Shown piece by piece: positions 3,004 to 33,231 of a DNA stretch of 64,000 nt. The position numbers were made by a program, and so were the translations under genes. Position 1 is the first letter of the stretch. Each line of letters begins with the position of its first letter. The DNA comes from an uncultured Candidatus Saccharibacteria bacterium (GTDB lineage Bacteria > Patescibacteriota > Minisyncoccia > Minisyncoccales > CAYZYK01), in assembly GCA_964507665.1 (NCBI GenBank), contig CAZDPT010000001.1, positions 33,912-97,911 on the forward strand. The letters run 5' to 3'. The notes below the pieces were generated by a model, which was not told the origin of the DNA, did no database searches, and saw nothing but the letters and a program-made list of their open reading frames with translations.

Positions 3004-3461
3004 TGGACCCAAAAAACAACATCAAATCTTCTCCTGAAGAAAATAATCTTCGAAATAGAATTAAAGATATTTTAGAAAGAACTCAAGGTCTTCCCCAGAA
3101 AACAAAAAAAGTTATTTTAGTTTTGATAGTTTTGATAGTAGGTCTAATCCTCGGTTTTATCTGGCTTCAGCAAACAAAAAAAAGACTAGCAGATTTTAAA
3201 AAAGAAGGCTTGATGGGAGAATATAATATCTCTTCTCTTAAAGAAGAAATAGAAGGGGAATTACAAGGAGCATTTTCATCAGAAATAGGAGTTAATACAG
3301 AAAGACTTAAGAGATTAAAGAAATTGATGGAGGAGAATCCAGAGCAAGCAAAAAAACTATTAGAAGAGATCAAACAGAACCCAGAAAAAGCAGAACAATT
3401 AATATCGGAATTTGAGAAAAAGAATAATTCTTCTGTCCCAGAAGAAAAATTAGAAGAATAA
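3003..3461 (+). CDS. hypothetical single-pass membrane protein with charged coiled-coil tail
   Basis: Start overlaps the upstream stop (taATGg). One TM (VILVLIVLIVGLILGFIWL) then a K/E-rich region. No family recognised. Confidence 0.45.
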   Translation: MDPKNNIKSSPEENNLRNRIKDILERTQGLPQKTKKVILVLIVLIVGLILGFIWLQQTKKRLADFKKEGLMGEYNISSLKEEIEGELQGAFSSEIGVNTERLKRLKKLMEENPEQAKKLLEEIKQNPEKAEQLISEFEKKNNSSVPEEKLEE

Positions 3462-3470
3462 TTATATATT

Positions 3471-6400
3471 ATGGCAAAATCTTCAAAAACTAAAACAAAA
3501 GAAATAGGTGAAGTAAAAGAGAGAAAAATAACAGAAGAGATGAAAGAGAGTTATATTGACTATGCTATGTCAGTTATTATTTCCAGAGCCTTGCCTGATG
3601 TCAGAGATGGTTTGAAGCCAGTTCACCGCAGAATTCTATATGCAATGTATGAGGATAGACTACTTCATAATGCCAGTTTCAGAAAATCAGCTACTGTAGT
3701 GGGGGCTTGCCTGAGTCGATATCATCCTCATGGAGATGTAGCTGTTTATAATTCTTTAGCAAGAATGACCCAAGATTTTTCTCTAAGATATCCGTTGACT
3801 TCCGGACAGGGAAATTGGGGTTCAATTGATGACCCTTCAGAATTTGCTGCAATGAGATATTGTATTACTGGTGATTCAATGATTGTTACCGACAGATGCT
3901 TAGAAAAAGTTGGGGAAGTTTCGGATAAAGAAGATATCTCTTTAAAGGTTTTATCTATGGGGAAAAAGGTGAATCAGGCATCAAAATGGTTTGATTCTGG
4001 AATTCACCCTGTTTTACAAATTAAAACTCATCGTGGTTATTCTTTGAGGGGGACATTTAATCATCCAATATTAACTTTGGTTCAGAACCAGGAGACAGGT
4101 AAACCAAACTTTAAATGGAAACTATTGGAAAACATTGAGAAAGGTGATTTTGCTGTTATTGATAGAAGTGACACTTTCTGGCCAGAAAAAGAACCTAGTT
4201 TAAAAAAATATTTTCCTGAAAGAGAAAGAAAAGACCGTGCTTTTGTTTATAACTTACCTTCTAAAATGAACCAGGACTTAGCTTTCTTAATGGGGGCTAT
4301 AACGGCTGAGGGCTATATTTCTATAGGAAAGAAGAGCGGAGCTCATAAGATAGGTTTTTGTAACACCGACAAGGAATTTCTTGATGGGTTTAGAAAAAGA
4401 TTTAAGAATCTATTTCCAAATTGTAAGATTTATGAACAAAAAAGAGACTCCTTAAGTTATGGTAAGAAAGAATTTGTCTCCTTTGAAATATGTTCTAAAT
4501 ATCTTGTTGAATTTTTGAAAAATTTAGGCCTTCAAGAAGTTCTTTCTGATAAAAAAAGAGTCCCTGAAATAATATTTCATTCTAGTAAGAAATCTGTAGC
4601 AGAGTTTCTAAAAGGATATTTTGAGGGGGACGGGGGGGTTTATCAAAACGTTGATTCTGGCTGGATAGAAGCCTCCTCTGCTAGTGGAGATTTATTTGAA
4701 GAGATACAAAATATTTTATTAAGGTTTGGTATAGTTTGTTCGGTGGTATATAACCAAAAAAGGAAAGAGTTTAAATTACTTATTAGAGGTTATAATAATC
4801 TGGGCCAGTTTAGAGAAAAGATTAATTTTCTTTCAAAAAGGAACAAAAATAAACTTAAAAAGTTTTCTCGCATTTATTCGGGAACCGCAATATCCAAAAC
4901 AGATTATATTCCCTTTCTTTCCCGGTATATAAGAAAAAAATATAAAAAGAAGGAAATAAATCCCGAGGATAAAAAATATCTTCGAACTCACAACCTTGAC
5001 AGATATTCCAAATTAAAGAAATATTTTCCTTATTTAAAAAAGATACTAGATAAGTCCGATATTGAACTTATTGAGAACTTTCTCGAAAATCATTATCTGT
5101 TTGATTCTATTGTCTCTATTAAGAAGAAATCAAAAGAGAGAGTGTATTCTTTAAGGATAGATAGTTCTTGCCATTCTTTTGTTTCTAACGGTTTTATTAG
5201 CCATAATACTGAAACAAAACTTTCAAAAATTGGAGAAGAAATGTTAAGAGACATTAAAAAAGACACAGTTGATTTTGAAGACAATTACGATGGGACCAGA
5301 CAAGAGCCAGTTGTTTTACCTTCTCCTGTCCCTCAACTTTTATTAAATGGAGCTTTGGGTATTGCAGTTGGTATGGCCACAAAGATTCCTCCTCATAATC
5401 TTTCTGAGGTTTGTGATGCTTGTTGTTTTCTTATTGAAAATCCAGAAGCTGAAACCTCTGATTTGTTTAAATTTATTAAAGGACCTGATTTTCCAACCGG
5501 TGGTATGATTTTTGATAAAAAGGAGATTATTTCTGCTTATTCTCAAGGCAAAGGTAAGATTGTGATGAGAGCCAAAACTAACATAGAAAAAAAGAAAGGG
5601 GGGGGAGCTAAAATTATAATTACAGAAATTCCCTATCAAGTTCAAAAAACCAGTTTAATTTCTAAGATGGCTAAGTTAGTTTCTGATAAGAAGATTAAAG
5701 GGATAAAAGATATTAAAGATTTATCAGATAGAGAAGGCATGAGAATTGAAGTAACAGCAAAAAAAGGTTCAAATCCTCGCAGAATTCTGAACAGACTCTA
5801 TAAATTTACCAATCTTCAGAAGAATTTCTATTTGAATATGTTAGCTATCGTTGATGGAATTCAGCCCAAAATTCTTTCTTTGACTGATGTTCTTTCTTAT
5901 TTCATTGCTCACAGAAAAGAGGTTGTGAAAAGAAGGACTAAATTTGAATTAGAGAAAGCAAAAGACAGAGCTCATATTCTTGAAGGGTTGAGTGTAGCTT
6001 TGAAAAATATTGATGATGTTATAGCAACAATTAAGAAATCAGCTAACCGTGATAAAGCTAAGAAAAACTTGAAGAAAAAGTTTGAATTAAGTAACAAGCA
6101 AGCAGAAGCAATATTACAGATGCGTCTTCAAGCCTTAGCTAAACTTGAAAGAGAAAAGATAGAAAAAGAATTCAAGGAATTAAAAAAGAAAATTAAGAAA
6201 TTAAAGGCAATTTTGAAAAGCAAAAAGAAGATTAAAGAAATTGTTAAAAAAGAATTAAAAGAAGTAAAAGAAAAATATGGGGATAAAAGAAAAACTAAAG
6301 TCAAAAAAGGTAAAATCAAAAGGATAAAAGAAGCAGATCTAGTTCCTTTACGGGAAACAATTATTACCCTGACAAAAGGAGGGTATGTTAAAAGAATTAA

Positions 6401-7319
6401 ACCAGGCACTTATAAGATTCAGAGAAGAGGCGGTAAAGGAATTATTGGTATGAAAACAAGGAAAAAGGATATTGTTGAACATTTTGTTTCTGCGTCAACA
6501 CATGATAAACTTCTCTTTTTTACAGACTCTGGAAAGGTTTTTCAAACTAAAGTTTACGAAATTCCAAAGGCAAAAAGAGTGGCCCGAGGTAGAGGCTTAG
6601 TTAACTTTTTAGATCTCTCCACAGAAGAGAATGTTTTATCTTTAATTCCCTTAAAGAAACAAGAAGAGAAGGGGATTAAGTATTTGGTTATGGTTACAAA
6701 AAATGGTAAAATAAAGAAAACAAGTTTAGATAAGTTCCAAAACGTAAGAAGAACTGGAATTCGAGCTATAAAGTTGAGAAAGGGAGATTTAGTAAGAGGT
6801 GTTATAAAAACTACTGGAAAAGACCAAATAATCCTGATTACCAAGAAAGGGAAATCAATAAGATTTAAAGAACAACAAGTAAGATCTATGGGTAGAGCAA
6901 CTTATGGAGTAAAAGGTATTAAACTTAAGAAAGGAGATGAGATAATTGGAATAGATGTTATCCATTCAGCAGACAAGAAGAAATCCAAGAAAAAAGAAAA
7001 GAAAAGCAAAAAAGGAAAGAAAACAGTATTGGTGGTTACAGAATCAGGTTATGGTAAAAGAACTCCTCTCTCGAAGTATAGAACTCAGAAGAGGGGAGGA
7101 GTAGGAATAAAGACAGCTAATATAAATAAGAAAACGGGCCAGATTGTAATTGGAAAAGTTCTAAGTTCTGAAGAAAAGGATCTAATTGTAATTTCAAGAA
7201 AAGGACAAGTGATAAGAGTTAAGATTGATTCTATTTCTATCCACAACAGAGCAACTCAGGGAGTTAGAATTATGAGGCTGAAAGAAGGAGATAAAGTAGC
7301 TTCTGGTACCTGTATTTAA
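3471..7319 (+). CDS. gyrA: DNA gyrase subunit A, interrupted in-frame by a 449-aa intein (precursor 1282 aa, mature about 833 aa)
   Basis: N-terminal GyrA signatures ([32 protein letters not shown], catalytic AAMRY). After the intein the GyrA sequence resumes (TETKL..., [23 protein letters not shown]). C-terminal beta-pinwheel repeats carry a K-rich insertion. Confidence 0.92.
3861..5207 (+). mobile_element. intein with LAGLIDADG homing-endonuclease domain at the gyrA-a site (immediately after the active-site Tyr)
   Basis: Starts with Cys ([11 protein letters not shown], block A) right after AAMRY. Block B is TFNHPILT. Two LAGLIDADG motifs ([15 protein letters not shown] and [14 protein letters not shown]). 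Ends ...SNGFISHN, with Thr as the first C-extein residue. 1347 nt, in frame. Confidence 0.88.
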
Positions 7320-7866: not shown

Positions 7867-8220
7867 ATGTTAATAAAAAAATCTTTTGTTCTCTTAATAT
7901 TGTTTTTGATCTTGCTGCTCTCTTCAAGCTTTGCGAAGGCAGTTATGATTGATAATCCTCTACAGGCTGAAAGTTTTTCAGATCTTATCAAGGCAATTGC
8001 GGAAATAATTTCAAGTATTGTTGGTGTTTTGGCTGTTTTAATGTTGATAATTGCGGGAATCTATTTTGTTACAGCAGCAGGTGATCCAAATCAAATCTCT
8101 AAAGCTAAAACCATGGTAAAATATGCTATAATAGGAGTTATTATCGCTACTTTAGCTGGGGCTATAGGGAGTGTAATTGAAGAAAAGTTATTAACAAAAG
8201 GCTTGTTGATAATTTTTTAA
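7867..8220 (+). CDS. small secreted/bitopic protein, paralog 1 of 9 (VirB2/T4SS-pilin-like architecture)
   Basis: Signal peptide (..SSSFAKA), variable segment, TM1 ending AGIYFVTAAGDPNQISKAKT, TM2 glycine/alanine-rich. Most divergent member of the array. Confidence 0.55.
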   Translation: MLIKKSFVLLILFLILLLSSSFAKAVMIDNPLQAESFSDLIKAIAEIISSIVGVLAVLMLIIAGIYFVTAAGDPNQISKAKTMVKYAIIGVIIATLAGAIGSVIEEKLLTKGLLIIF

Positions 8221-8283: not shown

Positions 8284-8600
8284 AAAAACATGAAAAGAGT
8301 ATTATCTGCTTTAATTCTCACAAGTCTCTTAGCTGTACCTCTTTTAGTGACAGCCCAAGGTGAACCAACACCTCCTGGAGATATTGAAGATATTCTTATT
8401 ACGATAAGAGGTATATTATGGGGTGCCTTCACTATCTTTGCTGTGATTATGTTTATTTATGCGGGTATCTTGTTTTTTACTGCCGGGGGTGATCCAGAAA
8501 AAGCAGCTAAAGCAAAAAGCGCTGTTATATTCGGAGTTGCTGGAATAGCAATTGCTATCTTAGGTTATGGAATTGTTGAGATTATGAGAGGAATTATGGG
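8284..8600 (+). repeat. tandem duplication unit, copy 1 (about 317 bp, near 100% identical to 8749..9065)
   Basis: Gene 8290..8607 and gene 8755..9072 are identical at nucleotide level from just upstream of the ATG through about codon 98. They differ only in the last about 7 codons and in the downstream spacers. Confidence 0.85.
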
Positions 8601-8607
8601 AGCCTGA
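8290..8607 (+). CDS. small secreted/bitopic protein, paralog 2 (T4SS-pilin-like)
   Basis: Signal peptide (LVTAQGE), core FIYAGILFFTAGGDPEKAAKAKSAVIFGVAGIAIAILGYGIVEIMRGIMGA. Near-identical to paralog 3. Confidence 0.6.
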   Translation: MKRVLSALILTSLLAVPLLVTAQGEPTPPGDIEDILITIRGILWGAFTIFAVIMFIYAGILFFTAGGDPEKAAKAKSAVIFGVAGIAIAILGYGIVEIMRGIMGA

Positions 8608-8748
8608 TAAATTGACTTTCGGAGATTGAATAGAATTATAGTGTTTTATTTTAAAATGGGTTCTAAGCCATAGGGTTTTGAAATGGCTTAGAACTCATTA
8701 TTTGGGTAAAAATAATTAAAAAAGGTTGAATTCTAAAATAAATTATAT

Positions 8749-9065
8749 AAAAACATGAAAAGAGTATTATCTGCTTTAATTCTCACAAGTCTCTTAGCTG
8801 TACCTCTTTTAGTGACAGCCCAAGGTGAACCAACACCTCCTGGAGATATTGAAGATATTCTTATTACGATAAGAGGTATATTATGGGGTGCCTTCACTAT
8901 CTTTGCTGTGATTATGTTTATTTATGCGGGTATCTTGTTTTTTACTGCCGGGGGTGATCCAGAAAAAGCAGCTAAAGCAAAAAGCGCTGTTATATTCGGA
9001 GTTGCTGGAATAGCAATTGCTATCTTAGGTTATGGAATTGTTGAGATTATTAAAGGAATTATGGG
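8749..9065 (+). repeat. tandem duplication unit, copy 2
   Basis: See copy 1. Offset of 465 bp. Confidence 0.85.
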
Positions 9066-9072
9066 GGCTTGA
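8755..9072 (+). CDS. small secreted/bitopic protein, paralog 3 (recent duplicate of paralog 2)
   Basis: Protein identical to paralog 2 except the C-terminal EIIKGIMGA versus EIMRGIMGA. Confidence 0.6.
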   Translation: MKRVLSALILTSLLAVPLLVTAQGEPTPPGDIEDILITIRGILWGAFTIFAVIMFIYAGILFFTAGGDPEKAAKAKSAVIFGVAGIAIAILGYGIVEIIKGIMGA

Positions 9073-9214
9073 GTTAATTTACTTTCTTCTTCCAAATAAG
9101 TTGACAATTCTTATCTCAAGAGTTATTTTAAAAGAAGAGTTTTTAAGCCTTTAAAAGGTCGTTCTAAATTCTATTTTCAAGTAAAATCTTGGATAAAAGA
9201 TAAGTTTAAAAAAC

Positions 9215-9544
9215 ATGAGAAAGATATTTGCAATTTTAGTTCTTAGTATTTTTTTGAGTTTGCCCTTTTTGGTATCTGGGGCTCTTCCTTCAGATCCTGG
9301 CTATAGCTGGTGGACAGATCTTGAAAGCGTACTAGAAGGTATATTAAGTAAATTTTGGACGATTTTTGTAGTTTTTTCTGTTATGGCCTTTATTTACGCT
9401 GGTTTCTTATTTTTAACCTCATCTGGAGATCCTGACAGAATAAAAAGAGCGAAGGGAGCTTTCATCTGGGGTGTGGTCGGTGTAGCTGCTGCTATTCTTG
9501 GTTATGCGATGATTAATATCATTAAGGGTATAGTTGGAGCTTGA
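9215..9544 (+). CDS. small secreted/bitopic protein, paralog 4 (T4SS-pilin-like)
   Basis: Signal peptide, core FIYAGFLFLTSSGDPDRIKRAKGAFIWGVVGVAAAILGYAMINIIKGIVGA. TTGACA-type promoter in the upstream spacer. Confidence 0.6.
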   Translation: MRKIFAILVLSIFLSLPFLVSGALPSDPGYSWWTDLESVLEGILSKFWTIFVVFSVMAFIYAGFLFLTSSGDPDRIKRAKGAFIWGVVGVAAAILGYAMINIIKGIVGA

Positions 9545-9775
9545 GATATTCTCTTAAAAATTATTCCCTGGTGTAGTTTTCAGGATAATATTATTTTGAA
9601 ATTGTCAGTAATTTAGATTAAGCAAGAAAGTAATTACAAAGAGCTAAAATAGTAAGAGTATTAGGTTGATATTTAAAACACAAAAGAATATATCTTTGAC
9701 AATTTAGAGATTGAAGATTCCTCAAATAGAGCACATATATTTTAATTAGGACAGTACAATAATTTAAATAAAATT

Positions 9776-10078
9776 ATGAGAATAGTTTTAATTAGTTTGT
9801 TTTGCTTTGTTGTTTTAATTTTACCCTTTACAGTAAATGCTCAGATTACTTGGAAGCAACTCAGTGGAGGTCTTATATCAGCAGCTTGGTCTATTTTTGC
9901 AGTTGTGGTTATTTTAAGTTTTATTTACGCTGCTTTGTTGTTTCTCAGCTCAGCGGGAGAGCCAGATAAAGTTAGCAGAGCAAAAAGAGCTTTTATTTGG
10001 GGAGTAGCTGGTGTAGTAGTTGGACTTCTTGCTTTTACAATAATAAGTCTTATAAAGGGAATAGTTGGAGCATCATAA
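9776..10078 (+). CDS. small secreted/bitopic protein, paralog 5
   Basis: Signal peptide (TVNAQ), core FIYAALLFLSSAGEPDKVSRAKRAFIWGVAGVVVGLLAF...IKGIVGAS. Confidence 0.6.
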   Translation: MRIVLISLFCFVVLILPFTVNAQITWKQLSGGLISAAWSIFAVVVILSFIYAALLFLSSAGEPDKVSRAKRAFIWGVAGVVVGLLAFTIISLIKGIVGAS

Positions 10079-10114
10079 GTCTTATGAAGGAGATTTTATA
10101 CTAAAATATCTATA

Positions 10115-10414
10115 ATGAAAATGAAGAAAAAAACCTTAATTATTATACTTTTTCTTTTTGTTTTGCCTCTCGTGGCTAATGCTGGTTATCTTGACTCGAT
10201 ACTAATCGGAATTAAAAATGCAATGATTAAAATTGCAGCTGCTGTAGTGATAGTAATGTTTCTTTGGGCTGCTATATTATTTGCTACAGCTTCAGGAGAA
10301 CCAGATAAAATTACGAAAGCAAAAAAAGCTTTTATTTGGAGTATTGCTGCAGCAATAGTAGCTATTATTGCTACTTCTATGTTTAGTTTAATTAGTGAAC
10401 TTACTGGTTTATAG
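10115..10414 (+). CDS. small secreted/bitopic protein, paralog 6
   Basis: Signal peptide (LVANA), core MFLWAAILFATASGEPDKITKAKKAFIWSIAAAIVAII. Confidence 0.6.
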   Translation: MKMKKKTLIIILFLFVLPLVANAGYLDSILIGIKNAMIKIAAAVVIVMFLWAAILFATASGEPDKITKAKKAFIWSIAAAIVAIIATSMFSLISELTGL

Positions 10415-10476
10415 TATTCTTTTTAATTCTAGAGGAATATTTAGAAGTTTAAAATAATCTTATCAATTATTACTAA

Positions 10477-10929
10477 ATGAAAAGGAGTCTATTTATTTTC
10501 ATTCTTATCTGTAATATTTTTTTGGTCTCTAATATTTTTCTTATTTTTCAGCTTGAAGGTAATAATACAGAAGAACTTTTCAGTAATTCATCCTCCTTTT
10601 TAAAAGATATCTTTACAGCAGAGAAGATTTTTGCTCAAGATGGAGATGGAGAACCTATTCCACCAAAAAAAGAAATTCCTTGGACTGGTAGCACAACTTT
10701 AAATAATATTTTTTTAGGTATCGCAACCTGGATAGTTAGAATTGGAGTAACAGTTACGGTAGTTATGTTTCTTTGGGCTGCTATATTATTTGCTACAGCT
10801 GCTGGAGACCCGACCAAACTCTCCCAAGCAAAAAAAGCTGTAATTTGGGGTTTGGCTGGAGGAATAATAGTTTTTCTTTCTCAAGTGATGAGCTGGATAG
10901 TTTATGAAATTACTGGTCTTTCCTGGTAA
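10477..10929 (+). CDS. small secreted/bitopic protein, paralog 7 (longer variable N-region, 150 aa)
   Basis: Core MFLWAAILFATAAGDPTKLSQAKKAVIWGLAGGIIVFL. Extended hydrophilic segment before TM1. Confidence 0.55.
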   Translation: MKRSLFIFILICNIFLVSNIFLIFQLEGNNTEELFSNSSSFLKDIFTAEKIFAQDGDGEPIPPKKEIPWTGSTTLNNIFLGIATWIVRIGVTVTVVMFLWAAILFATAAGDPTKLSQAKKAVIWGLAGGIIVFLSQVMSWIVYEITGLSW

Positions 10930-10971
10930 TAAATTTCTATTTTAAGATATAAAAAGGTTTGGAAAATTTAT

Positions 10972-11310
10972 TTGAATCAAAGTATGAAAAAAATCTTATC
11001 TATTATAATTATTTCTAGCATTTTCATTTCTCCTATTATTGTTTCAGCTGCTGATTTATTCGAGGTACCAGAGAAAACCTTAGAGAATGTAAAAACAACA
11101 GTTATAAATATATTAAAGGCTCTTGTTTGGACAGTAACCATAGTTATGTTCGTTTACGCTGGAATTTTATTTCTTACCTCAGCAGGAGCTCCAGATAAAC
11201 TCGGAAAAGCAAAAAAAGCGTTTATTTGGGGAATAGGGGGAGTAATAGTGATTGGAATAGGTTTTGCAATAGAAACCATTGTAAGTGAATTGTTTGGTTT
11301 AAGTTTCTAA
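10972..11310 (+). CDS. small secreted/bitopic protein, paralog 8
   Basis: Signal peptide (IVSAAD), core MFVYAGILFLTSAGAPDKLGKAKKAFIWGIGGVIVIGIGF. Confidence 0.6.
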   Translation: MNQSMKKILSIIIISSIFISPIIVSAADLFEVPEKTLENVKTTVINILKALVWTVTIVMFVYAGILFLTSAGAPDKLGKAKKAFIWGIGGVIVIGIGFAIETIVSELFGLSF

Positions 11311-11387
11311 ATTATTTTTATTGGGTACTTTTTATCTGTTTTGGAAATAAAAATTAATAATTCATAGAATAAAATTTTTCAAAAAAT

Positions 11388-11714
11388 ATGAATAAAATTT
11401 TATTAAATCTCAGTCTTACTATTCTTATCGTCAGCATTTTAGTTTTACCTTTTGAAGTTATCGCAGCAGGAGATAGTGGTATAACTGAGATTAAAAATAA
11501 AATTAAAGAATTAGGAAAACTAGCCTGGACTATTTTAGTTTCTTTAGCAGTAGTAATGTTTGTATATGCTGGAATTTTATTTCTGATATCTTCGGGATCT
11601 CCAGATAAACTCGGAAAAGCAAAAAAAACGTTTATTTGGGGAATTGCTGGGCTGATACTGGGTCTCTTAGCATTTTGGCTAGTAGAAATTATTTCAGGAA
11701 AGGCTGCTTGGTGA
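11388..11714 (+). CDS. small secreted/bitopic protein, paralog 9
   Basis: Signal peptide (EVIAAGD), core MFVYAGILFLISSGSPDKLGKAKKTFIWGIAGLILGLLAF. Confidence 0.6.
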   Translation: MNKILLNLSLTILIVSILVLPFEVIAAGDSGITEIKNKIKELGKLAWTILVSLAVVMFVYAGILFLISSGSPDKLGKAKKTFIWGIAGLILGLLAFWLVEIISGKAAW

Positions 11715-16571: not shown

Positions 16572-16643
16572 AGATATTGTTGGCCCTATCGTCTAACGGA
16601 AAGGACACTTGATTTTCAATCAAGCAATAGGGGTTCGATTCCC
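16572..16643 (+). tRNA. tRNA-Glu (anticodon TTC)
   Basis: Manual fold: acceptor GGCCCTA/TGGGGCC, D-arm TCGTCTAACGG..GAC, anticodon stem CTTGA/TCAAG, loop TTTTCAA, T-arm AGGGG TTCGATT CCCCT. Close match to canonical bacterial tRNA-Glu. Confidence 0.8.
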
Positions 16644-16654
16644 CTTGGGGCCAC

Positions 16655-17343
16655 ATGAATCCCAGAAACAAAAGTAAATACAAAAAGGCATTTAACTTAC
16701 GAGTTAAAGGAAAAAGTTATGGAGAAATAAAAGAAGCTTTAGGAATTCCCAAAAGCACGCTTAGTAGTTGGTTTAAGAACCTGAAATTGCCTAAATCCGC
16801 TCAAAAAATCCTTAAGAAGAAAGACAAAAAAGGTAGAAAAAATTATTAGAATTTAATAAAAAACGTAGTCAGAGAATCCGCCTTGAGAACCAAAGAATAA
16901 GAAAAAATGCTGCTAATAAAATCAAATCTTTTTCAAAATATGAACTGTTGTTGATCGGAAGTGCTCTCTATTGGGCAGAAGGATATAAAAAACAACAAAA
17001 CACAAACTCGCCTTGTATCTGCTTTGCGAACTCTGATCCAGCAATGATTCTTTTATTTCTTCGCTTTCTTCGCGAAATTATTGAAGTTCCCGAAAAAAGA
17101 ATAAGGTTATCAATTCAAATACATCCAAATCTTGACAAAAAATCTATTGTCAATTTTTGGGCGAGCATCACTGATATTTCTCAAGAACGGATTAGAACCA
17201 AGAGATGTAAGAGTCGGGCGAGCAAGGGAAAACGTCCTAAAAACACCCTTCCCTATGGGACAGCAGATGTAAGAGTTAGTAAGCGTCAATATTTTTTCAA
17301 GATTAGGGGATGGATTGATGGGATTAAAAAATTCAATACTTGA
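16655..17343 (+). pseudogene. split or frameshifted ORF pair: 64-aa basic HTH protein (16655..16849) and 131-aa ORF (16948..17343, TTG start) with a degenerate LAGLIDADG-like motif; possibly a decayed free-standing homing endonuclease
   Basis: The first ORF has an HTH (SYGEIKEALGIPKSTLSSWF). The second, in a different frame, carries LIGSALYWAEGYK (compare GFFEAEGSF variants of LAGLIDADG) followed by the hydrophobic pattern typical of that fold. Located directly 3' of tRNA-Glu. Confidence 0.3.
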
Positions 17344-17369: not shown

Positions 17370-18929
17370 ATGCCCAAAAAATATTTAGAAATAGCCCATG
17401 CTTCAGATTTCAAAGATTTAAGAAGAAGAAAGATTTATCGTTTCTTTGAAATGATTCCGGGAGTCTTAAGTTTGGGAACTCTTATCGGAGTTCTCTTTTT
17501 TTCTTGGATTTTACCTTCTTTTGTGGCAATTTTTATAATTCTTTTTTGTCTCTTTTATCTTTGTAAAATCTGTTATCTTTCAATTCATCAGATAATTACT
17601 TATATTAAGATGAAAAAGAATCTAAGAATTGACTGGCTAAGTAAACTTAAAAAATTAAAAACTAAGAACTGGGAAAACATTTATCATTTAATAGTTTTAC
17701 CAACTTACAAAGAAAAAAAGAAAATTATTAAGGACAGTTTGAACGCTTTGGTAAAATCAGATTATCCAAAAGAAAAGATGATAGTAGTTTTGGGAGTTGA
17801 AGAGAGGGCAGGCAAACAAGCTTTGCGAGGAGCTGAAGAGATAGAAAAAAAATACAAGAACAAATTTTATAAGTTTTCAATTACGGTTCACCCAAAAGAC
17901 ATTCCTGGCGAGGTAGCAGGAAAAGGTTCTAATGAAAGATGGGCAGTAAAAAAAGCCCATCAGAAGATAATTGATAAAGAAAAAATTCCCCATAAAGACA
18001 TTGTTGTTTCTAGTTTTGATATTGATACCAAAGTTTACCCAAAATACTTTTCTTGTTTGACATATCATTTTTTGACGACAAAAAACCCCCATAAAACAAG
18101 TTATCAACCCATCCCAGTTTATAATAACAATATTTGGCAAGTACCTGCTTTCAGTAGAGTAGTAGCAACTTCTAACACTTTCTGGCAGATGGTTCAACAA
18201 GGAAGGCCAGAAAAACTCGTTACTTATTCTTCTCACTCAATGCCCTTTCGGGTCTTTGAAGAAGTAGGATATCCTAATAATATGGTCTCTGATGATTCAA
18301 GGATTTTTTGGAAATCATATCTTCATTATAATGGAGATTATAAGGCTCTGCCCTTATATTATCCTGTTTCAATGGATGCTGTTTTAACCGATTCTCTTTT
18401 AAAAACAATAATCAATCAATACAAGCAACAAAGAAGGTGGGCTTGGGGATGTGAGGAGATTCCTTATTTGATATATGGCTTTTTGAGAAATAAAAAAATA
18501 TCTTTCTGGAATAAATTAAAACATCTTCTTGCTGTAATTGATGGTTTTTGGTCCTGGGCAACCTCTACCCTTTTAATTTTTATTCTAGGATGGTTGCCTT
18601 TAATTTTAGGAGGAGAACGATTTAGCACAAGTTTACTCTCCTATAATCTTCCCAGGTTAACTGGAAGAATTATGACTTTTGCTATGATTGGAATGGTTGT
18701 TTCTGCTATCTTAAGTATGCTTCTTTTGCCTTCCCGGCCTCAAGGAATTAAAAGAACAAAATATATCTCTTTATTTTTACAATGGCTTCTTTTACCTATT
18801 ACTTTAATATTTTTTGGGTCTTTTCCAGCTCTGGATGCTCAAATTCATTTAATGATTGGTAAGTATATGGGTTTTTGGGTTACCGAGAAATCTCGCTATC
18901 CCAGAAGCAGAAAACAACCAGAAGAATGA
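17370..18929 (+). CDS. membrane-embedded processive family-2 glycosyltransferase (cellulose/chitin-synthase-like)
   Basis: N- and C-terminal TM helices flank a GT-A domain. Contains DxD-like SFDIDTK and the Q(Q/R)xRW motif QQRRWAWG diagnostic of processive GT2 enzymes. Confidence 0.75.
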   Translation: MPKKYLEIAHASDFKDLRRRKIYRFFEMIPGVLSLGTLIGVLFFSWILPSFVAIFIILFCLFYLCKICYLSIHQIITYIKMKKNLRIDWLSKLKKLKTKNWENIYHLIVLPTYKEKKKIIKDSLNALVKSDYPKEKMIVVLGVEERAGKQALRGAEEIEKKYKNKFYKFSITVHPKDIPGEVAGKGSNERWAVKKAHQKIIDKEKIPHKDIVVSSFDIDTKVYPKYFSCLTYHFLTTKNPHKTSYQPIPVYNNNIWQVPAFSRVVATSNTFWQMVQQGRPEKLVTYSSHSMPFRVFEEVGYPNNMVSDDSRIFWKSYLHYNGDYKALPLYYPVSMDAVLTDSLLKTIINQYKQQRRWAWGCEEIPYLIYGFLRNKKISFWNKLKHLLAVIDGFWSWATSTLLIFILGWLPLILGGERFSTSLLSYNLPRLTGRIMTFAMIGMVVSAILSMLLLPSRPQGIKRTKYISLFLQWLLLPITLIFFGSFPALDAQIHLMIGKYMGFWVTEKSRYPRSRKQPEE

Positions 18930-18963: not shown

Positions 18964-19027
18964 TTTATTCAAAATGAATCCTTTTTTCAAATTGTTTTAC
19001 CCTTTGTTTAAGAGCAGGGTATTTTTT
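18964..19027. repeat. direct repeat A: relic copy of the recG 3' end (last 20 codons plus stop; 2 aa substitutions if translated on minus strand)
   Basis: About 88% identical to 19886..19950. The reverse complement reads KKYPALKQRVKQFEKRIHFE-stop versus the authentic RecG C-terminus KKYPALKKRVKQFEKKIHFE. Confidence 0.8.
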
Positions 19028-19053
19028 TAGTTTTTTGGATAGAGCGGATTTAT

Positions 19054-19107
19054 TTGACAACAAAGTTAACCTATGTTAGCTTACTAAACAAAGGTTAACT
19101 TAGGTTA
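19054..19107 (+). promoter_or_regulatory. promoter/operator of the HTH-doc module: TTGACA followed by two direct repeats GTTAACCTATGTTA / GTTAACTTAGGTTA (each containing GTTAAC)
   Basis: TTGACA at 19054-19059. 14-bp repeats at 19065-19078 and 19094-19107. ATG at 19118. Confidence 0.45.
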
Positions 19108-19117
19108 AAAACAAAAT

Positions 19118-19399
19118 ATGACAAACAAAAGCAAAAAAGCAAAAAAGCAAAAATTTTTGTCTACCACTGAATTAGCTGAGATTTTAGGTATCAGCCGGAT
19201 TGCAGTTTACAAGAAAATAAAAAAGGGAGAAATTAAAGCTCAAAAAATAGCAGGTAATTATGCTATCGATAAGAAAGATTTAGGGGGTATTTTAAAAGAA
19301 GAATTATCTCAAAAAGAAAAAGCAGAAATTGAAGAGGTAGTTGATAAGGTGGTTGAAGATTACGGTGAAACCCTTAAATTGTTATCTCGAAATGATTAA
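19118..19399 (+). CDS. excisionase-family helix-turn-helix DNA-binding protein, likely antitoxin/autorepressor of the downstream Doc toxin
   Basis: LSTTELAEILGISRIAVYKKIKKGEIKAQKIAGNYAIDKKDL (Xis/MerR-type HTH). Its stop overlaps the doc start (ATGATTAA). Confidence 0.6.
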   Translation: MTNKSKKAKKQKFLSTTELAEILGISRIAVYKKIKKGEIKAQKIAGNYAIDKKDLGGILKEELSQKEKAEIEEVVDKVVEDYGETLKLLSRND

Positions 19400-19817
19400 A
19401 TCTTTATCTAAAGCAGAAGTTAAAGAGATTGCCTTTGTGCTTGCCAAAAAGCATCTTGGTTTTGATGAACCAATTCCTGGTTTTGATAGTCGCTATCCTA
19501 ATATTTTAGAAAGTTGTCTTGTGGTTCCTTTTCAAACATTTACCAAAAAACCAGTTTACAAGGGTCTTATTGGAAAAGCATCAATCCTTTTTTATTTAAT
19601 GATTAAAAACCATCCATTTCAGAACGGCAATAAAAGGATTGCAATGACCACATTGCTTTTTTTTCTTTACAAAAACAAAAAATGGTTAGAGATTGACGCC
19701 AAAGAACTTTATAATTTTGCGGTTTGGGTCACAGAAAGCAACCCAAAAGTTAAGACCGAGACCATAGAATCTATTAAAAAGATTCTTAGAACCCACTTAG
19801 TTAATTTAAAGGAATAA
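19392..19817 (+). CDS. doc: Doc/Fic-family toxin (death-on-curing)
   Basis: Core motif HPFQNGNKR (compare P1 Doc HIFNDANKR). ATG at 19392 overlaps the upstream stop. The track ORF starts further upstream at 19341. Confidence 0.75.
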   Translation: MIKSLSKAEVKEIAFVLAKKHLGFDEPIPGFDSRYPNILESCLVVPFQTFTKKPVYKGLIGKASILFYLMIKNHPFQNGNKRIAMTTLLFFLYKNKKWLEIDAKELYNFAVWVTESNPKVKTETIESIKKILRTHLVNLKE

Positions 19818-19885
19818 TTTTAACAAGAAAGTCGTGTTCTCAAAGGGACACCTATAGAATCGCTGAAGATTGAAAAAAATAGAAG

Positions 19886-19950
19886 TTTATTCAAAATGAA
19901 TTTTCTTTTCAAATTGTTTTACCCTCTTTTTGAGAGCAGGGTATTTTTTT
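19886..19950. repeat. direct repeat B: authentic 3' end of recG (partner of 18964..19027)
   Basis: See repeat A. Confidence 0.8.
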
Positions 19951-22037
19951 AATTTGGGGTCCTCAGTTAGGATTTCTTTTGCTGATTCTCTTGTTTTTTC
20001 TACCAATTCTATATCCTTTAAGCTTGTCATAGCAAGGTCTGGAATACCCCATTGCCGATTTCCGTAAAGTTCCCCCGGACCCCTGATTTCAAGATCTTTT
20101 TCTGCCAGTTCAAAGCCATCCTCTGACTTTTCTAAGGCTTTTAATCTTTTTCTTGTTTTTTTTGTTCGAGAATTGGTAAACAAAAAACAATAGGATTGAT
20201 ATTTTGCCCTGCCTACTCTGCCCCGGAATTGATGAAGTTGAGCTAAACCAAATCTTTCAGCACCTTCAATCATCATAACTGTAGCTCTGGGGATATCAAT
20301 TCCTACTTCAACCACAGAGGTGGCAACTAAAATATCAATTTCTCCCTTTTTAAATTTTTTCATTGTTTTCTCTTTTTCTCTTGTTCCCATTTTACCGTGT
20401 AACATTCCAATTTTTAGATCAGGGAAAATCTCTTCTGAGAGTTTTTGATATTCTTCTTTTACGGCTTTCACTTCCCCCCAACCTGTTTTATCTTCTTCTT
20501 TTTCGGTGGGTTCTATCCTTGGACAAATTACAAAAACTCCTCTTCCTTTTTCAATTTCTTTTTTAATAAAGTTATAGGTTTGTTTCCTTTTATTTGAGGA
20601 GACAATTTTAGTTTTTACTTTTTTTCTACCTTTTGGTAATTCAGTAATTAAAGATAAGTCAAGATTACCGTAGACAGTTAAAGCTAAAGTTCTGGGAATT
20701 GGGGTGGCGGTCATAGATAAAAAGTGAGGAATAAATTCTTTTTGAAGACAGAGTTTTGCTCTTTGTTCAACTCCAAAACGGTGTTGTTCATCAACAATTA
20801 CTAAAGCTAGGTCTTTGAATTTAACCTTTTCCTGAATCAGAGCATGGGTTCCTATTAAAATATCTATTTCTCCTTCTTTTAATTTTTTTAATAACCTTCT
20901 GCGAGAAATTTCTAAAACTTCGTTTTTTAATTTTTTAGCGTTAACTTTATCTTGTTTTCCTGTTAAAAAACCAATTTTTAATTTAAAATCATCTAAGATT
21001 CTTCTTACTTTTCTAAAATGTTGTTTAGCTAAGATTTCAGTTGGAGCCATAAAAGCTACCTGATGTCGGTTTCTGGCTACATTTAAAGCAGCCATAGTAG
21101 CAACTACCGTTTTACCACTTCCAACATCACCTTCTAATAATCTTGACATAGGAGTGGGTTTTTCTAAATCCTTTAATATTTGCCAGGCTGCCTTTTTTTG
21201 AGAATCAGTTAGAGAAAAAGATAGAGATTCAGTAAAATCTTTCATTAATTCTGTGTCCATGGGACAAGAAACAGCTTTCTTTTTTTTCAATCGTAATTTT
21301 TCTTTTAAAACAGAAATTTGAATGAGAAACAATTCTTCAAAACCAAATCTTTTTTTAGCCCTTTTTGCTTTTTTTAGAGAATCAGGAAAATGAATTTGGA
21401 TTAGAGCTTCTTTTATAGGTAAGAGGTTGTATTTTCTTCTCATTTTTTCTGGAAGAGGATCTTGAATCTTATTTCTGAATTTAAAGAGTAGAGGTTTTAA
21501 AATATATCGTAACCATCTTGAGGATAAACCTTCTGTTTCTGGATAGACAGGAATTATTCTACCAGTATGAATTAATTTAGATTTTATCTCTTTGTTAAAT
21601 TTGTTCTCACTGGTAGTATTGGAAGAGGACTTTGAAATTTTTTCATAAATAGGATTATTAAGGTATAAACCCTCTTTTCCTAATTTAATTTTTCCTGCCA
21701 GACAAACAGTTGTGCCAGTTTTTAAAGTTTTTTTAAGGTAAGGTCGGTTAAACCATATTACCTTTAAGGGGGCTGTTTTATCTTGAACAATAGCTTGAGT
21801 TAAAATCATCTTTTTTTTCCATGTTCTTTTGTTTTCTATTTCTTTAATTTCTCCTTTAACACAAACTGTTTTGTTTGGGCTAATTTCTGCTATTTTGGTT
21901 ATTTCTGAAAAATCTTCATATCGGTGAGGAAAATGATAAAGCAGATCTCGTACATTTTTAATACCGAGTTTATTTAATCTTTTCTGGTATTTTTTTCCCA
22001 CATTAGGTATTTTTTTAATTGAAGTAGATAAATCCAT
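19887..22037 (-). CDS. recG: ATP-dependent DNA helicase RecG
   Basis: Wedge/OB N-terminal domain, helicase motifs GDVGSGKT (Walker A), VDEQHRFG (DEQH box), HGKM...QFRGRVGR. 716 aa. Confidence 0.9.
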   Translation of the reverse strand: MDLSTSIKKIPNVGKKYQKRLNKLGIKNVRDLLYHFPHRYEDFSEITKIAEISPNKTVCVKGEIKEIENKRTWKKKMILTQAIVQDKTAPLKVIWFNRPYLKKTLKTGTTVCLAGKIKLGKEGLYLNNPIYEKISKSSSNTTSENKFNKEIKSKLIHTGRIIPVYPETEGLSSRWLRYILKPLLFKFRNKIQDPLPEKMRRKYNLLPIKEALIQIHFPDSLKKAKRAKKRFGFEELFLIQISVLKEKLRLKKKKAVSCPMDTELMKDFTESLSFSLTDSQKKAAWQILKDLEKPTPMSRLLEGDVGSGKTVVATMAALNVARNRHQVAFMAPTEILAKQHFRKVRRILDDFKLKIGFLTGKQDKVNAKKLKNEVLEISRRRLLKKLKEGEIDILIGTHALIQEKVKFKDLALVIVDEQHRFGVEQRAKLCLQKEFIPHFLSMTATPIPRTLALTVYGNLDLSLITELPKGRKKVKTKIVSSNKRKQTYNFIKKEIEKGRGVFVICPRIEPTEKEEDKTGWGEVKAVKEEYQKLSEEIFPDLKIGMLHGKMGTREKEKTMKKFKKGEIDILVATSVVEVGIDIPRATVMMIEGAERFGLAQLHQFRGRVGRAKYQSYCFLFTNSRTKKTRKRLKALEKSEDGFELAEKDLEIRGPGELYGNRQWGIPDLAMTSLKDIELVEKTRESAKEILTEDPKLKKYPALKKRVKQFEKKIHFE

Positions 22038-29966: not shown

Positions 29967-31691
29967 ATGGAAGGTTTAATAAAACAACTATATAAGGAGG
30001 GAGTAATAGATAAATCCAAAAGAAAAAGTTTAGGATTAGAGAAAAAAAGAACAGGAAAAAAAGAAGAACAAATAATCTTAGAAAAAAAAGTTGTTCCGGA
30101 AGATTTTTTATTTAAATTAAAAAGTAAACTATTAAAGATTTCCTTAAGAGATATTGTTCCCGAGGAGATACCATTAGAAGTTTTGGAATTAATTCCGGAA
30201 AGTTCTGCTTTAAGTTACAAAATGATACCCTTATCTAAAAAAGATAGTACAGTGGAGATAGGAATGGTTTATCCTGAAGATGCTCGTCCCAAAGAAGCTT
30301 TAAGGTTTATTGCCAGACAAGGAAAGTTTGACTACAAGATTTATTTAATCACTCTAACTGATTTTCAAGATCTTATCGGGCAATACAGAACCTTAAAAAG
30401 AGAAACGAAGAGAGCCCTGGAGGCTATGGAAGAGGAAGAAATCAGCATTCCATCTCCTGAGAGAAAACTCCCGGAAACTGAAAAGATAACTGAAGAAACC
30501 CCAATTGTTAAGATGGTTTCTGTGATTATAAAACATGCTGTTGAAGGTAAGGCTTCTGATATTCATATTGAACCTACAGCAGAAAAAGTAAAAGTCCGTT
30601 TTCGATTAGATGGAATTTTGTATTCTAGTTTGTTTTTACCCAGAAGAGTTCATTCAGCAATCGTAGCTAGGATTAAAGTTTTAGCTAAACTAAAAATTGA
30701 TGAAACAAGAATTCCTCAAGATGGTAGGTTCACTACCGAAGTTAAAGATAAAAAAATTGATTTTAGGGTCTCTACTTTCCCAACCATTTTAGGGGAGAAG
30801 GTAGTAATAAGGGTACTTGATCCTACTGAGGGACTGAAATCTTATAAAGAGATAGGTTTGGAGAAAAGGAATCTTGAGTTGGTTGAAAAAGCAGCAAAAG
30901 ACCCATTTGGATTGATTTTGGCAACAGGTCCTACCGGTTGTGGAAAAACTACTACCCTTTATTCTCTTTTACGCCTTTTAAATAAAGAGAAAGTAAATAT
31001 TGTAACCATTGAGGACCCAGTAGAATATTCTATTGAGGGAGTTAATCAGTCTCAGGTTAAACCAGAGATAAATTATACTTTTGCCAGAGGCTTGCGTCAT
31101 GTTTTAAGACAAGACCCCGATGTTATTATGGTAGGGGAAATTAGAGATGAGGAAACAGCCCAGTTAGTAATACACGCTGCCTTAACAGGGCATGTGGTGT
31201 TTTCAACCTTACACACTAACAATGCTGTAGGAGTTATTCCCAGGTTAGTTGATATGGGAATAAGATCATTTTTACTTCCCCATAGTCTGAATATTGCTAT
31301 TTCTCAAAGATTAGTAAGATCTCTCTGTCCTGATTGTAAAAAGAAAGTAAGAGCTGATAAAGAAACAAAAGAATATATTCTAGATCAGATTGATAAATTC
31401 CCCCCAGAAGTAAAAAAGAAAGTAAAAATTCCTAAAACACTTTATATCTATGAACCCCAGGGATGTGAGAAATGTAATTTTAAAGGTTACATCGGAAGAA
31501 TAGGTGTGTTTGAGGTTTTTAAAATGACAGATAAAATGGCTGATTTAATCTCAGAGGGAATAAACACAGATAAAATTCGCAAAGAAGCTTATCGTCAAGG
31601 TATGATTACTATGGCTCAAGATGGAGTCTTAAAGGTCTTGGATGGTGAAACTACTGTAGAGGAAGTGCTAAGATTAGTTCAAACTAGGTAA
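29967..31691 (+). CDS. pilB: type IV pilus assembly ATPase PilB (GspE family)
   Basis: Walker A GPTGCGKTT, Asp box, His box, tetracysteine CPDC...CEKC, N-terminal GspII-like domain. 574 aa. Confidence 0.88.
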   Translation: MEGLIKQLYKEGVIDKSKRKSLGLEKKRTGKKEEQIILEKKVVPEDFLFKLKSKLLKISLRDIVPEEIPLEVLELIPESSALSYKMIPLSKKDSTVEIGMVYPEDARPKEALRFIARQGKFDYKIYLITLTDFQDLIGQYRTLKRETKRALEAMEEEEISIPSPERKLPETEKITEETPIVKMVSVIIKHAVEGKASDIHIEPTAEKVKVRFRLDGILYSSLFLPRRVHSAIVARIKVLAKLKIDETRIPQDGRFTTEVKDKKIDFRVSTFPTILGEKVVIRVLDPTEGLKSYKEIGLEKRNLELVEKAAKDPFGLILATGPTGCGKTTTLYSLLRLLNKEKVNIVTIEDPVEYSIEGVNQSQVKPEINYTFARGLRHVLRQDPDVIMVGEIRDEETAQLVIHAALTGHVVFSTLHTNNAVGVIPRLVDMGIRSFLLPHSLNIAISQRLVRSLCPDCKKKVRADKETKEYILDQIDKFPPEVKKKVKIPKTLYIYEPQGCEKCNFKGYIGRIGVFEVFKMTDKMADLISEGINTDKIRKEAYRQGMITMAQDGVLKVLDGETTVEEVLRLVQTR

Positions 31692-32166: not shown

Positions 32167-33231
32167 ATGAACTATTCTCTGAAACTTAAAAAACTGTTAT
32201 CTCAAGTTTTAAAAGAGAAAGCCTCCGATTTACATATTTCTGTTGGTCATCCTCCAACTTTAAGGATAACAGGTAGATTAACTCCTCTGGTAAAAGAGAA
32301 AGAAATTACCCAAAAGGACGCTCAAGGATTGGCTTCTGCTTTGATGACTGAAACTCAATGGCAGAAATTTCAGAAAGAAAAGGGGGTTGATTTCTCTTAT
32401 GACTTTGAAAAGAAAGCCAGATTCCGAGTAAATGTCTTTTTTCAAAGAGGGAATGTAAGTGTAGCTTTAAGATTAATTCCTTACAAAATTAGAACAATTG
32501 AAGAGTTAAATTTACCTCCTGTTTTACATGAATTTACTCGACGATCCCAGGGACTTGTTTTAATCACTGGAGCTTCAAGTCAAGGTAAATCTACTACCTT
32601 AGCTGCCTTAATTGATGAAATAAATGAAAACAGACCAGTTCATATAATAACCATTGAAGACCCTATTGAGTATGTTTTTCATGATAAACAAGCTATAGTG
32701 GATCAAAGAGAGGTTTATCATGATACTTTAAGTTTTAATAAAGCTCTCAGATCTACCTTCCGTCAAGACCCCGACGTTATTATGGTAGGGGAGATAAGAG
32801 ATCTTGAGACAATCTCTAGTGTTATTACCGCAGCAGAAACGGGTCATTTAGTTTTTGCTACCTTACATACTAATTCTGCCTCCCAAACTATTCATCGAGT
32901 TGTTGATGTTTTTCCACCAGAGCAACAGAACCAGATTAGGTATCAATTATCTGGTTCTTTATTGGGGGTAGCGTCACAAAGATTAATTCCTTCAATTAAA
33001 GGAGGATTTGTTCCTGCTTGTGAGATTATGTTCGCTAATTCAGCTGTGGCAACTCTGATTCGGGAGAACAAAATTCATGAACTTCCTGCTGTGATTGAAA
33101 CTTCAGCTAAAGAGGGTATGGTCTCTCTAAACAGAGCTTTGGCAGATTTAGTTAGAAGGAAAGAAATTTCTGTTAAAAATGCCATTAGTCATTCTTTAAA
33201 GCCCGGTGATCTTAGAAACATTTTAGGGTAA
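32167..33231 (+). CDS. pilT: twitching-motility/retraction ATPase PilT
   Basis: 354 aa PilT-size hexameric ATPase. Walker A GASSQGKSTT, IITIEDPIEY, RQDPDVIMVGEIRD. Confidence 0.85.
   Translation: MNYSLKLKKLLSQVLKEKASDLHISVGHPPTLRITGRLTPLVKEKEITQKDAQGLASALMTETQWQKFQKEKGVDFSYDFEKKARFRVNVFFQRGNVSVALRLIPYKIRTIEELNLPPVLHEFTRRSQGLVLITGASSQGKSTTLAALIDEINENRPVHIITIEDPIEYVFHDKQAIVDQREVYHDTLSFNKALRSTFRQDPDVIMVGEIRDLETISSVITAAETGHLVFATLHTNSASQTIHRVVDVFPPEQQNQIRYQLSGSLLGVASQRLIPSIKGGFVPACEIMFANSAVATLIRENKIHELPAVIETSAKEGMVSLNRALADLVRRKEISVKNAISHSLKPGDLRNILG

Follow-up and report, generated by a model that had tools for sequence, protein, structure and literature searches.

A toxin-antitoxin cassette of the HTH_17-Doc family inserted at the 3' end of recG and bracketed by a duplicated gene end in an uncultured Saccharibacteria bacterium

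In the 64,000-nucleotide stretch analyzed here (contig CAZDPT010000001.1 of assembly GCA_964507665.1, positions 33,912 to 97,911, from an uncultured Candidatus Saccharibacteria bacterium, an ultra-small organism of the Patescibacteria type; termed the window in the following), the 3' end of recG is present twice, and the two copies bracket an 852-bp insert that holds only a promoter/operator region, a gene for a helix-turn-helix (HTH) protein of the HTH_17 family and an overlapping doc gene. Judged by its sequence, this pair is a Doc-family type II toxin-antitoxin (TA) system with an HTH_17 antitoxin. A Doc TA module and an insertion that restores a gene end are both of known kinds; what is notable is the minimal size of the inserted unit and that it carries no recombinase. 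With a confidence slightly above even, we favor as its origin a single crossover of the Campbell type within the tail of recG, by which recG would have received a new tail from the incoming DNA and the native one would have been pushed aside.

A repeat search placed the two tail copies at 18964-19033 and 19886-19955, with 63 of 70 nt identical (90%) and a spacing of 922 nt. A preceding sequence-only reading had reported direct repeats of about 65 bp and 88% identity at this place; they are real, slightly longer and more similar. As seen in a MAFFT alignment, the repeat sets in 1 nt beyond the stop codon of recG and breaks off abruptly after 22 codons, its content being the last 22 codons of the gene plus the stop. 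The right copy, on the minus strand, constitutes the present and functional 3' end of recG and translates to KLKKYPALKKRVKQFEKKIHFE-stop. The left copy, also on the minus strand, is a relic adjoining a gene for a glycosyltransferase-like (GT-like) protein; it has kept frame and stop codon, and when read in the recG frame it yields KLKKYPALKQRVKQFEKRIHFE-stop, which agrees with the earlier observation that a translatable RecG C-terminus is preserved there. The same reading had the relic follow the upstream gene immediately; this needs correction, as 34 nt separate the relic from the stop codon of that gene. A binomial estimate over all position pairs in 64 kb gives an expected chance count of ~2e-18 for a match of at least 63 in 70 positions, BLAST between the two 1200-nt flanks of the cassette returned E=4e-23, and the inverted-orientation control did not exceed 31 bits at any locus. 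The pair is the sole non-paralogous repeat of such kind in the window.

Closest relatives were drawn from a RecG scan, with one genome per species, and were then searched by tblastn with window proteins, and their junction sequences were inspected. The junction is empty in four of them, L003, L004, L014 and L006, whose RecG proteins are 81%, 59%, 60% and 47% identical to that of the window, respectively. In each, recG and the GT-like gene are convergent with stop codons 0-60 nt apart, and HTH gene, doc gene and second recG tail are all missing from the junction. A single base lies between the two convergent stop codons in L003, where the full gene order (GH130, recG, GT-like gene, a 131-amino-acid open reading frame (ORF), a small HTH ORF, TsaD, valyl-tRNA synthetase) is kept. 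The empty sites in four relatives identify the TA module as an insertion in the lineage of the window, just as the comparison proposed along with the first description of the locus had anticipated. The relic is found in the ancestral position of the recG tail, next to the GT-like gene. As no relative with a RecG identity between 81% and 100% was detected in a collection of 5.8 billion proteins, the insertion cannot be dated more finely.

The arrangement recurs in other assemblies. Logan contig L001, which stems from another run, is 99.95% identical to the window over 14,954 nt with 7 single-nucleotide polymorphisms, none of which lies in the cassette or the repeats, and a third contig, L002, spans HTH, doc and recG. 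This recurrence in independent assemblies shows that the structure is not an assembly artefact. It was also considered whether the duplicated tail is a chance match, a mis-assembly or an old neutral duplication that predates the TA genes and has nothing to do with them. We attach hardly any probability to these explanations: the chance expectation of ~2e-18 and three agreeing assemblies rule out the first two, while an old duplication is contradicted by the four relatives, which possess neither a second tail nor TA genes, and by 14 other genomes, none of which contains a recG-tail duplicate downstream of recG. A duplicated tail in the absence of TA genes, named beforehand as the observation that would speak for a neutral event, was thus encountered neither among the relatives nor in the 14 further genomes, and the explanation is effectively refuted. 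The same 14 genomes led us to discard the recG tail as a recurrent att site.

The two tails differ at 7 nt, which amount to three synonymous changes and to the conservative replacements K/Q and K/R with 2 nt each. The arginine of ..EKRIHFE, present in most relatives, is retained in the relic. When L003 is used as outgroup, the relic matches it at 61 and the functional copy at 60 of 70 positions, and three derived changes fall on the functional copy, two on the relic and two are ambiguous. Both copies therefore look like working alleles by their substitution pattern. A relic whose divergence does not exceed that of the functional copy is not what is predicted for the decaying pseudo-copy of an in-place duplication, that is an illegitimate or replicative insertion, for example via a long staggered break or template switching, in which the recipient's own 70-nt tail was copied and the copies diverged later. 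Such an origin appears quite unlikely to us. It would agree with the variable length of the repeats at other loci (~16-70 nt, and 183 nt where the L078 hairpin clusters are included), which is unlike the product of one site-specific enzyme, and with the near-zero intergenic space, in which only insertions that regenerate gene ends would survive, such that selection alone could explain the restoration of recG. It is opposed by the relic itself, which shows no excess divergence, frameshift or stop and only synonymous or conservative changes, and by the edge of the repeat, which coincides exactly with the recG stop and would have to be a coincidence in the case of a random stagger. Moreover, a divergence of 10% implies an old event, yet the non-coding relic has remained free of gaps. 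A target duplication of 70 nt also lies far outside the ranges known for transposases, which further counts against a duplication in place.

Campbell-type integration, the origin favored here, would have brought a self-contained type II TA cassette of ~850 bp with its own promoter and operator between the convergent recG and GT-like genes. The incoming DNA would formally have been a small circle of ~920 bp consisting of the cassette and a homologue of the recG tail, and a single reciprocal crossover within the last ~70 nt of recG would have joined to the gene a tail that is at least partly incoming DNA, while the displaced native tail was probably left beside the GT-like gene as the relic. A possible catalyst would be host homologous recombination via RecA on circularized DNA that had been taken up by transformation and came from a related donor in which the cassette followed recG; alternatively, a tyrosine integrase may have acted in trans. 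Crossover and foreign origin of one of the tails are what we infer. The repeat begins exactly at the recG stop, as it should where incoming and resident DNA are homologous only as far as the end of the gene. Neither a recombinase nor terminal inverted repeats nor an attC site is present in the 852-bp insert. The model has a precedent in experiments with E. coli, in which a single crossover of a circularized molecule with a truncated homologous segment led to flanking duplications of 109-950 bp; classic homology-facilitated illegitimate recombination usually results in an insertion plus a deletion (PMC3240628).

Several observations weigh against this origin. No integrase or recombinase is linked to the cassette, neither within 8 kb on either side in the Pfam gene table of the window nor in the repeat-bearing homologous loci, and no donor was found in which the cassette follows recG. 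The longest blocks of perfect identity between the two tails measure only ~20 nt, which is short for a RecA-mediated crossover unless the differences arose later. The recG tail is no recurrent target in the 14 other genomes, and ~85-90% of the homologous cassettes are without a detectable flanking repeat. Sliding identity to L003 does not drop towards the 3' end of recG, and a longer imported tract reaching into recG was discarded on the same grounds. Finally, a comparison over seven sites has very low power and the closest relative lacking the TA module is only 81% identical in RecG, which limits how far a foreign tail can be told from an in-place duplication. A small palindrome, ATTCAAAATGAAT, is located inside the recG tail. 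An Xer/dif-based origin, as in integrative mobile elements exploiting Xer (IMEX), was dropped, as there is no dif consensus for the lineage and no evidence that the locus is the replication terminus.

Restoration of a gene end had also been likened to the way in which integrative elements regenerate the 3' ends of tRNA genes. The restoration as such is borne out, while the likeness stays a formal analogy given an insert without integrase. According to a further explanation, a larger element that encoded a tyrosine integrase entered the 3' end of recG site-specifically through an attP site with a mimic of the recG tail and was later deleted down to attL, TA module and attR, comparable to the remnant of a cis-mobilizable element (CIME). 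The TA module would have resisted loss during genome streamlining through post-segregational killing. We regard this course of events as unlikely. Direct repeats that restore a gene end are a hallmark of integrase-mediated integration, a classic tRNA 3'-end duplication occurs at a homologous locus, L089, the HTH protein belongs to the excisionase family, and compact genomes are involved, in which the spacers measure 0-60 nt. On the other hand, the borders are very tight, with 20 nt between the relic and the -35 element and a distance of 68 nt between the stop codons of doc and recG, and the insert is free of pseudogene debris. Equal tightness at L041, L064, L067 and L089 would require that near-perfect reductions had taken place repeatedly and independently; the recurrence of tight borders at independent loci thus argues somewhat against repeated reduction of large islands and fits the cassette as the unit of insertion better. 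No integrase-bearing parent was seen beside a homologous cassette at ~90 loci with annotated or inspected neighbors. In plasmids and phages, only distant Doc proteins of 32-36% identity were detected and 2.9 million viral contigs of IMG/VR yielded none at all, which speaks against a parental island and led us to reject a phage or plasmid as the vehicle. Direct repeats and an empty site, as known from site-specific integrative elements, are present here, whereas an integrase inside the insert and recurrent use of the site are absent.

Within the cassette, the first gene (19118-19399, plus strand) encodes the candidate antitoxin of 93 amino acids with a winged HTH of the HTH_17/excisionase family at residues 13-55 and a conserved C-terminal segment (..EYGETLKLL..). 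It matches Pfam PF12728 (HTH_17) with E=2.5e-9 and NCBIfam TIGR01764 with 32.4 bits (cut-off 28.8). The second gene (19392-19817, plus strand) encodes the candidate toxin, a Doc protein of the Fic-fold kinase type with 141 amino acids and the motif HPFQNGNKR, for which PF02661 (Fic/Doc) gave E=1.7e-8 and 35.6 bits (cut-off 24) and TIGR01550 (DOC_P1) gave 43.8 bits (cut-off 38.65); its match among Doc structures in the PDB is 9vzc. Among Fic motifs, HPFQNGNKR represents the Doc variant, with the pattern HxFx(D/N)(A/G)NKR. The motif is invariant in 34 aligned homologues, and the window protein carries all invariant residues of the family. With all four profile thresholds passed, the assignment as an HTH-Doc TA module made from the sequence at first sight is corroborated. 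The ATG of doc at 19392 lies inside a longer, mechanically called ORF (19341-19817) and overlaps the stop of the HTH gene by 8 nt, which, together with the conserved bicistron described below, supports the translational coupling of doc that had been proposed. The spacer from the doc stop to the recG stop (19818-19885, 68 nt, given on the plus strand) is inserted DNA and contains a weak hairpin only.

We infer toxicity and neutralization from family membership. As a Fic-fold kinase, Doc would phosphorylate EF-Tu and thereby stop translation, and the HTH protein would neutralize Doc via its conserved C-terminal segment. A Phd/YefM match for the 93-amino-acid partner was not obtained in curated profile searches, and affiliation with the P1-type Phd/YefM-Doc subfamily was rejected in view of the HTH_17/TIGR01764 partner. 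Membership in a defense system was likewise dismissed, PADLOC having reported generic Doc-domain and mad1-HTH similarity only. The cassette has a GC content of ~31%, equal to that of its surroundings, and a foreign compositional signature is therefore lacking. A search of the repeat and the spacers against Rfam gave one sub-threshold match only.

The promoter/operator region of the cassette (19034-19117, plus strand) has a layout that is conserved among homologous loci. A -35 element TTGACA (19054-19059) is followed after 5 nt by GTTAAC (19065-19070) and after another 4 nt by GTTAGC (19075-19080), and the putative -10 element TAGCTT (19077-19082) overlaps this second box. A second pair of boxes precedes the start codon and comprises GTTAAC (19094-19099) and, 4 nt further on, the degenerate GTTAAA (19104-19109). 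The promoter was not called in a generic promoter scan because its -10 element is weak, with 3 of 6 positions matched. Phylogenetic footprinting revealed the 6-bp palindrome GTTAAC in 51 of 59 homologous upstream regions, usually in two to four copies, typically as GTTAAC-ca-TTGACA-N5-GTTAAC-N4-GTTAAC, and the spacing in the window is the same. The suggestion that the GTTAAC repeats are operator half-sites has thus gained strong comparative support for what are predicted sites, and an autoregulatory operator at the cassette promoter is strongly supported by these conserved sequences. The HTH protein would autorepress the operon by binding the pairs of GTTAAC boxes with its N-terminal winged HTH, of which one presumed pair lies between the -35 and -10 elements and the other shortly before the start codon.

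The family to which the module belongs is large. The Doc protein has 6,244 homologues at E<1e-5, among them many with identities of 60-78% from several phyla (Patescibacteria groups, Aminicenantes and others); database pipelines already label them as 'type II toxin-antitoxin system death-on-curing family toxin'. This spread, together with a sibling cassette at another locus (see below), speaks for mobility of the family. From a metagenome scan combined with an alignment of Doc homologues, 80 homologous loci were obtained, and an HTH_17 gene is situated directly upstream of doc in ~75 of these, with overlaps of -4, -7 and -1 nt being the most common. HTH residues ~13-45 and a C-terminal segment (..EYGETLKLLGKE) are both conserved across 62 HTH sequences. 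Neighbors of the homologous cassettes are housekeeping genes and never integrases, and the loci are diverse. A description of an HTH_17-Doc pair or of a repeat-flanked cassette with TA genes only was not found in the literature searched, which does not prove novelty.

Whether cassettes elsewhere are flanked by repeats was assessed in two ways. Of 42 real modules, 4 showed direct matches of at least 30 bits between their 500-nt flanks (3 of 41 if the window is left out), compared to 4 of 351 pseudo-modules set at other positions of these contigs (one-sided Fisher p=0.028). Exact matches of at least 16 nt between close flanks were seen at 4 of 53 modules (3 of 52 if the window is left out) and in 0 of 159 controls (p=0.014). 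Borderline AT-rich matches at L070, L071, L088 and L091 were left out of the counts, and the sample is small and heterogeneous. L089 presents the classic att-like signature of a tRNA end: a tRNA-Ala(cgc) gene (1181-1254) ends 65 nt before the HTH start, the first GTTAAC box follows 11 nt past the tRNA end, and a copy of the tRNA 3' end with 17 of 22 positions matched (2005-2024) lies 15 nt after the doc stop. The segment bounded in this way spans ~750 nt and contains the TA module only. In L041, a relic ribosome-binding site with ATG and seven codons (MKRVFII) of the downstream serine-hydrolase gene precedes the cassette (5640-5663), and the live hydrolase gene (MTKRVFII...), which lacks a Shine-Dalgarno sequence of its own, begins anew at a distance of 4 nt from the doc stop (6425-6449). 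This duplication of a gene 5' end mirrors the recG case. In L064 and L065, hairpin repeats of 29-30 nt are found directly after the upstream gene and again after doc.

This repeat-flanked minority hints at mobility of integrase-less cassettes. In its strongest form the idea would be that HTH_17-Doc cassettes are minimal mobile units without integrase that insert at gene ends with a target-restoring duplication, a proposal that we consider improbable. Their targets would be 3' and 5' ends of protein genes, 3' ends of tRNA genes and terminator hairpins; the excisionase-type antitoxin, sitting on its GTTAAC boxes at a distance of 10-30 nt from the left junction, may also assist a host recombinase as a recombination-directionality or architectural factor; and the cassettes of the window, L089, L041, L064 and L065 would be recent insertions, the repeat-less majority being old.

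Other repeats next to cassettes were not accepted as target duplications. Those of L076 are two whole paralogous peptidase genes, those of L067 and L108 relic Doc 3' ends of decayed neighboring cassettes, and those of L078 hairpin clusters resembling repetitive extragenic palindromes. In L078, short GC-rich hairpins of this kind (e.g. GCAGACTTCAGTCTGC, GGAGTCCTCCCGAAAGGGAGG), which are similar to repetitive extragenic palindromic sequences and bacterial interspersed mosaic elements (REP/BIME-like), occupy both sides of the cassette (5370-5600 and 6550-6760).

A sibling of the window cassette with 82% DNA identity, stemming from the same run series (SRR70482xx), resides at another locus upstream of xseAB. 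In this sibling (L108, 160-903 and 4064-4205; also L109) the doc stop has been lost and 106 extra residues are read, and a decayed Doc 3' fragment with stop codons follows 3.2 kb downstream, right after xseB, such that two Doc tails bracket a gene for 458 amino acids, xseA and xseB. Upstream of the intact HTH-Doc module in L067 (364-636), a relic Doc C-terminus is accompanied by a 65-nt terminator-like hairpin that is 98% identical to the hairpin after the intact doc, which suggests tandem cassettes of which the first has decayed. Two complete modules (2402-3066 and 5726-6396) occur 3.3 kb apart in L037. Among contigs with identical Doc, genes for 97 and 235 amino acids between doc and Lip_A_acyltrans are present or absent, depending on the group (L124/L125/L128/L133 versus L127/L130/L131), and this indel polymorphism adjoins the cassette.

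Of the genes on both sides of the insertion, recG itself (19887-22037, minus strand; 716 amino acids) is intact and comprises all RecG Pfam domains, namely wedge, DEAD, Helicase_C and RecG_dom3_C. Its left neighbor (17370-18929, plus strand), convergent with recG, encodes a membrane protein of 519 amino acids that is weakly similar to glycosyltransferases of family 2 (GT2) and for which no Pfam family was matched. Local similarity to TarS-like glycosyltransferases in the PDB (E=0.026) and to the N-terminus of CelA (E=6e-4) is weak, and the GT2 label assigned to this gene previously is thus plausible and weakly supported. On the plus strand, the recG tail can form a hairpin (UACCCU..AGGGUA) followed by seven U residues; it occurs in both copies of the window (18998-19028 and 19920-19950) and in L003 (~8040-8075). 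This element looks like a terminator that serves the convergent gene and is located within the coding sequence of recG. Where two genes run towards each other without a gap, as recG and the GT-like gene do in relatives, each terminator has to lie inside the coding end of the opposite gene. After the insertion, the predicted hairpin of the relic could terminate the GT-like gene and that of the functional copy the HTH-doc transcript, and a predicted role of this kind could account for the relic having stayed free of gaps. Further upstream (16582-17343; L003 9675-10364), a tRNA-Glu gene is directly followed by an HTH ORF of 64 amino acids with weak similarity to transposase HTH domains or sigma region 4, and by a family-less ORF of 131 amino acids. 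Both ORFs are conserved beside tRNA-Glu in the 81% relative L003 and may represent one split gene or a small domesticated element.

Additional repeats exist in other parts of the window. Two copies of at least 300 nt each, 100% identical and 465 nt apart, were noticed at 8284-9048, and a tandem family of diverged units of ~146-186 nt at 8880-11700; both sit in a run of small genes for which the near-identical L001 gives a Pfam T4SS_pilin match. A direct repeat with 99% identity over at least 300 nt and a spacing of 744 is located at 39534-39833 and 40278-40577, and another with 95% identity over 37 nt and a spacing of 378 at 40584-40620 and 40962-40998. Segments of 48 nt that are 85% identical (31110-31157 and 32764-32811) belong to two genes at a distance of 1.65 kb, which probably encode paralogous ATPases.

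The locus provides a clean, synteny-dated case of a selfish TA module entering a streamlined genome with almost no intergenic space. That the insertion regenerates the recG end it interrupts is textbook-style rather than surprising, and the event can be seen as a fairly ordinary colonization of a compact genome. Beyond the single locus, footprinting documents how operators are built in the HTH_17-Doc family of uncultured bacteria, which is very large and experimentally uncharacterized. Should the modest excess of flanking repeats hold in a wider sample, TA modules would turn out to move as autonomous cassettes without a linked recombinase, and this would bear on the spread of defense and addiction genes among Patescibacteria.

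Phd-Doc of P1 is a type II TA system, the Doc protein of which is a Fic-fold kinase that phosphorylates EF-Tu. The pair of the window resembles it in its Doc-type motif, in the small, overlapping antitoxin gene upstream and in an operator over the promoter that implies autoregulation. It differs in that its antitoxin has a winged HTH of the HTH_17/excisionase type with a C-terminal extension instead of the Phd/YefM fold, and in that the module is chromosomal, occurs in uncultured Patescibacteria-like genomes and has a Doc only 32-36% identical to those of plasmids and phages.

Integrative elements at gene 3' ends include e14 and phage 21 in E. coli icd, where an icdC relic is left, and ICESt1/ICESt3 in the 3' end of fda in Streptococcus thermophilus. 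Direct repeats of a gene 3' end, an intact gene, a displaced relic at the far side and an empty site in relatives are shared features, whereas the insert in the window lacks an integrase, an excisionase pair and other cargo, measures 0.85 kb as compared to 10-40 kb, and uses a site that is not reused in other genomes. CIMEs, described in S. thermophilus, are flanked by att sites and devoid of recombination and transfer genes. The insert shares with them att-like repeats, which here mark the 3' end of a gene, and the absence of a recombinase; in contrast to CIMEs, its cargo is TA only, and no cognate element was detected among ~90 loci, plasmids, phages and IMG/VR. TA cassettes of sedentary chromosomal integrons move as cassettes and stabilize their surroundings. 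They, too, are ~1-kb units with a TA operon under its own promoter, and differ from the window, where attC hairpin, intI, attI and array are lacking and the repeat is recG coding sequence; an integron gene cassette was thus rejected, as no attC-like imperfect palindrome bounds the insert and no array is present. Transposons, insertion sequences and miniature inverted-repeat transposable elements were excluded as well, given a 70-nt duplication, no end-pairing inverted repeats and no transposase. Among the known systems there is, finally, Campbell integration, in which the experimental repeats of 109-950 bp are identical, unlike the 70 nt and 90% identity of the window repeat (PMC3240628). The likeness lies in a bracketing duplication that is as long as the homologous segment carried in and in the dispensability of a dedicated recombinase (PMC3240628), and a process of this type suits naturally competent bacteria.

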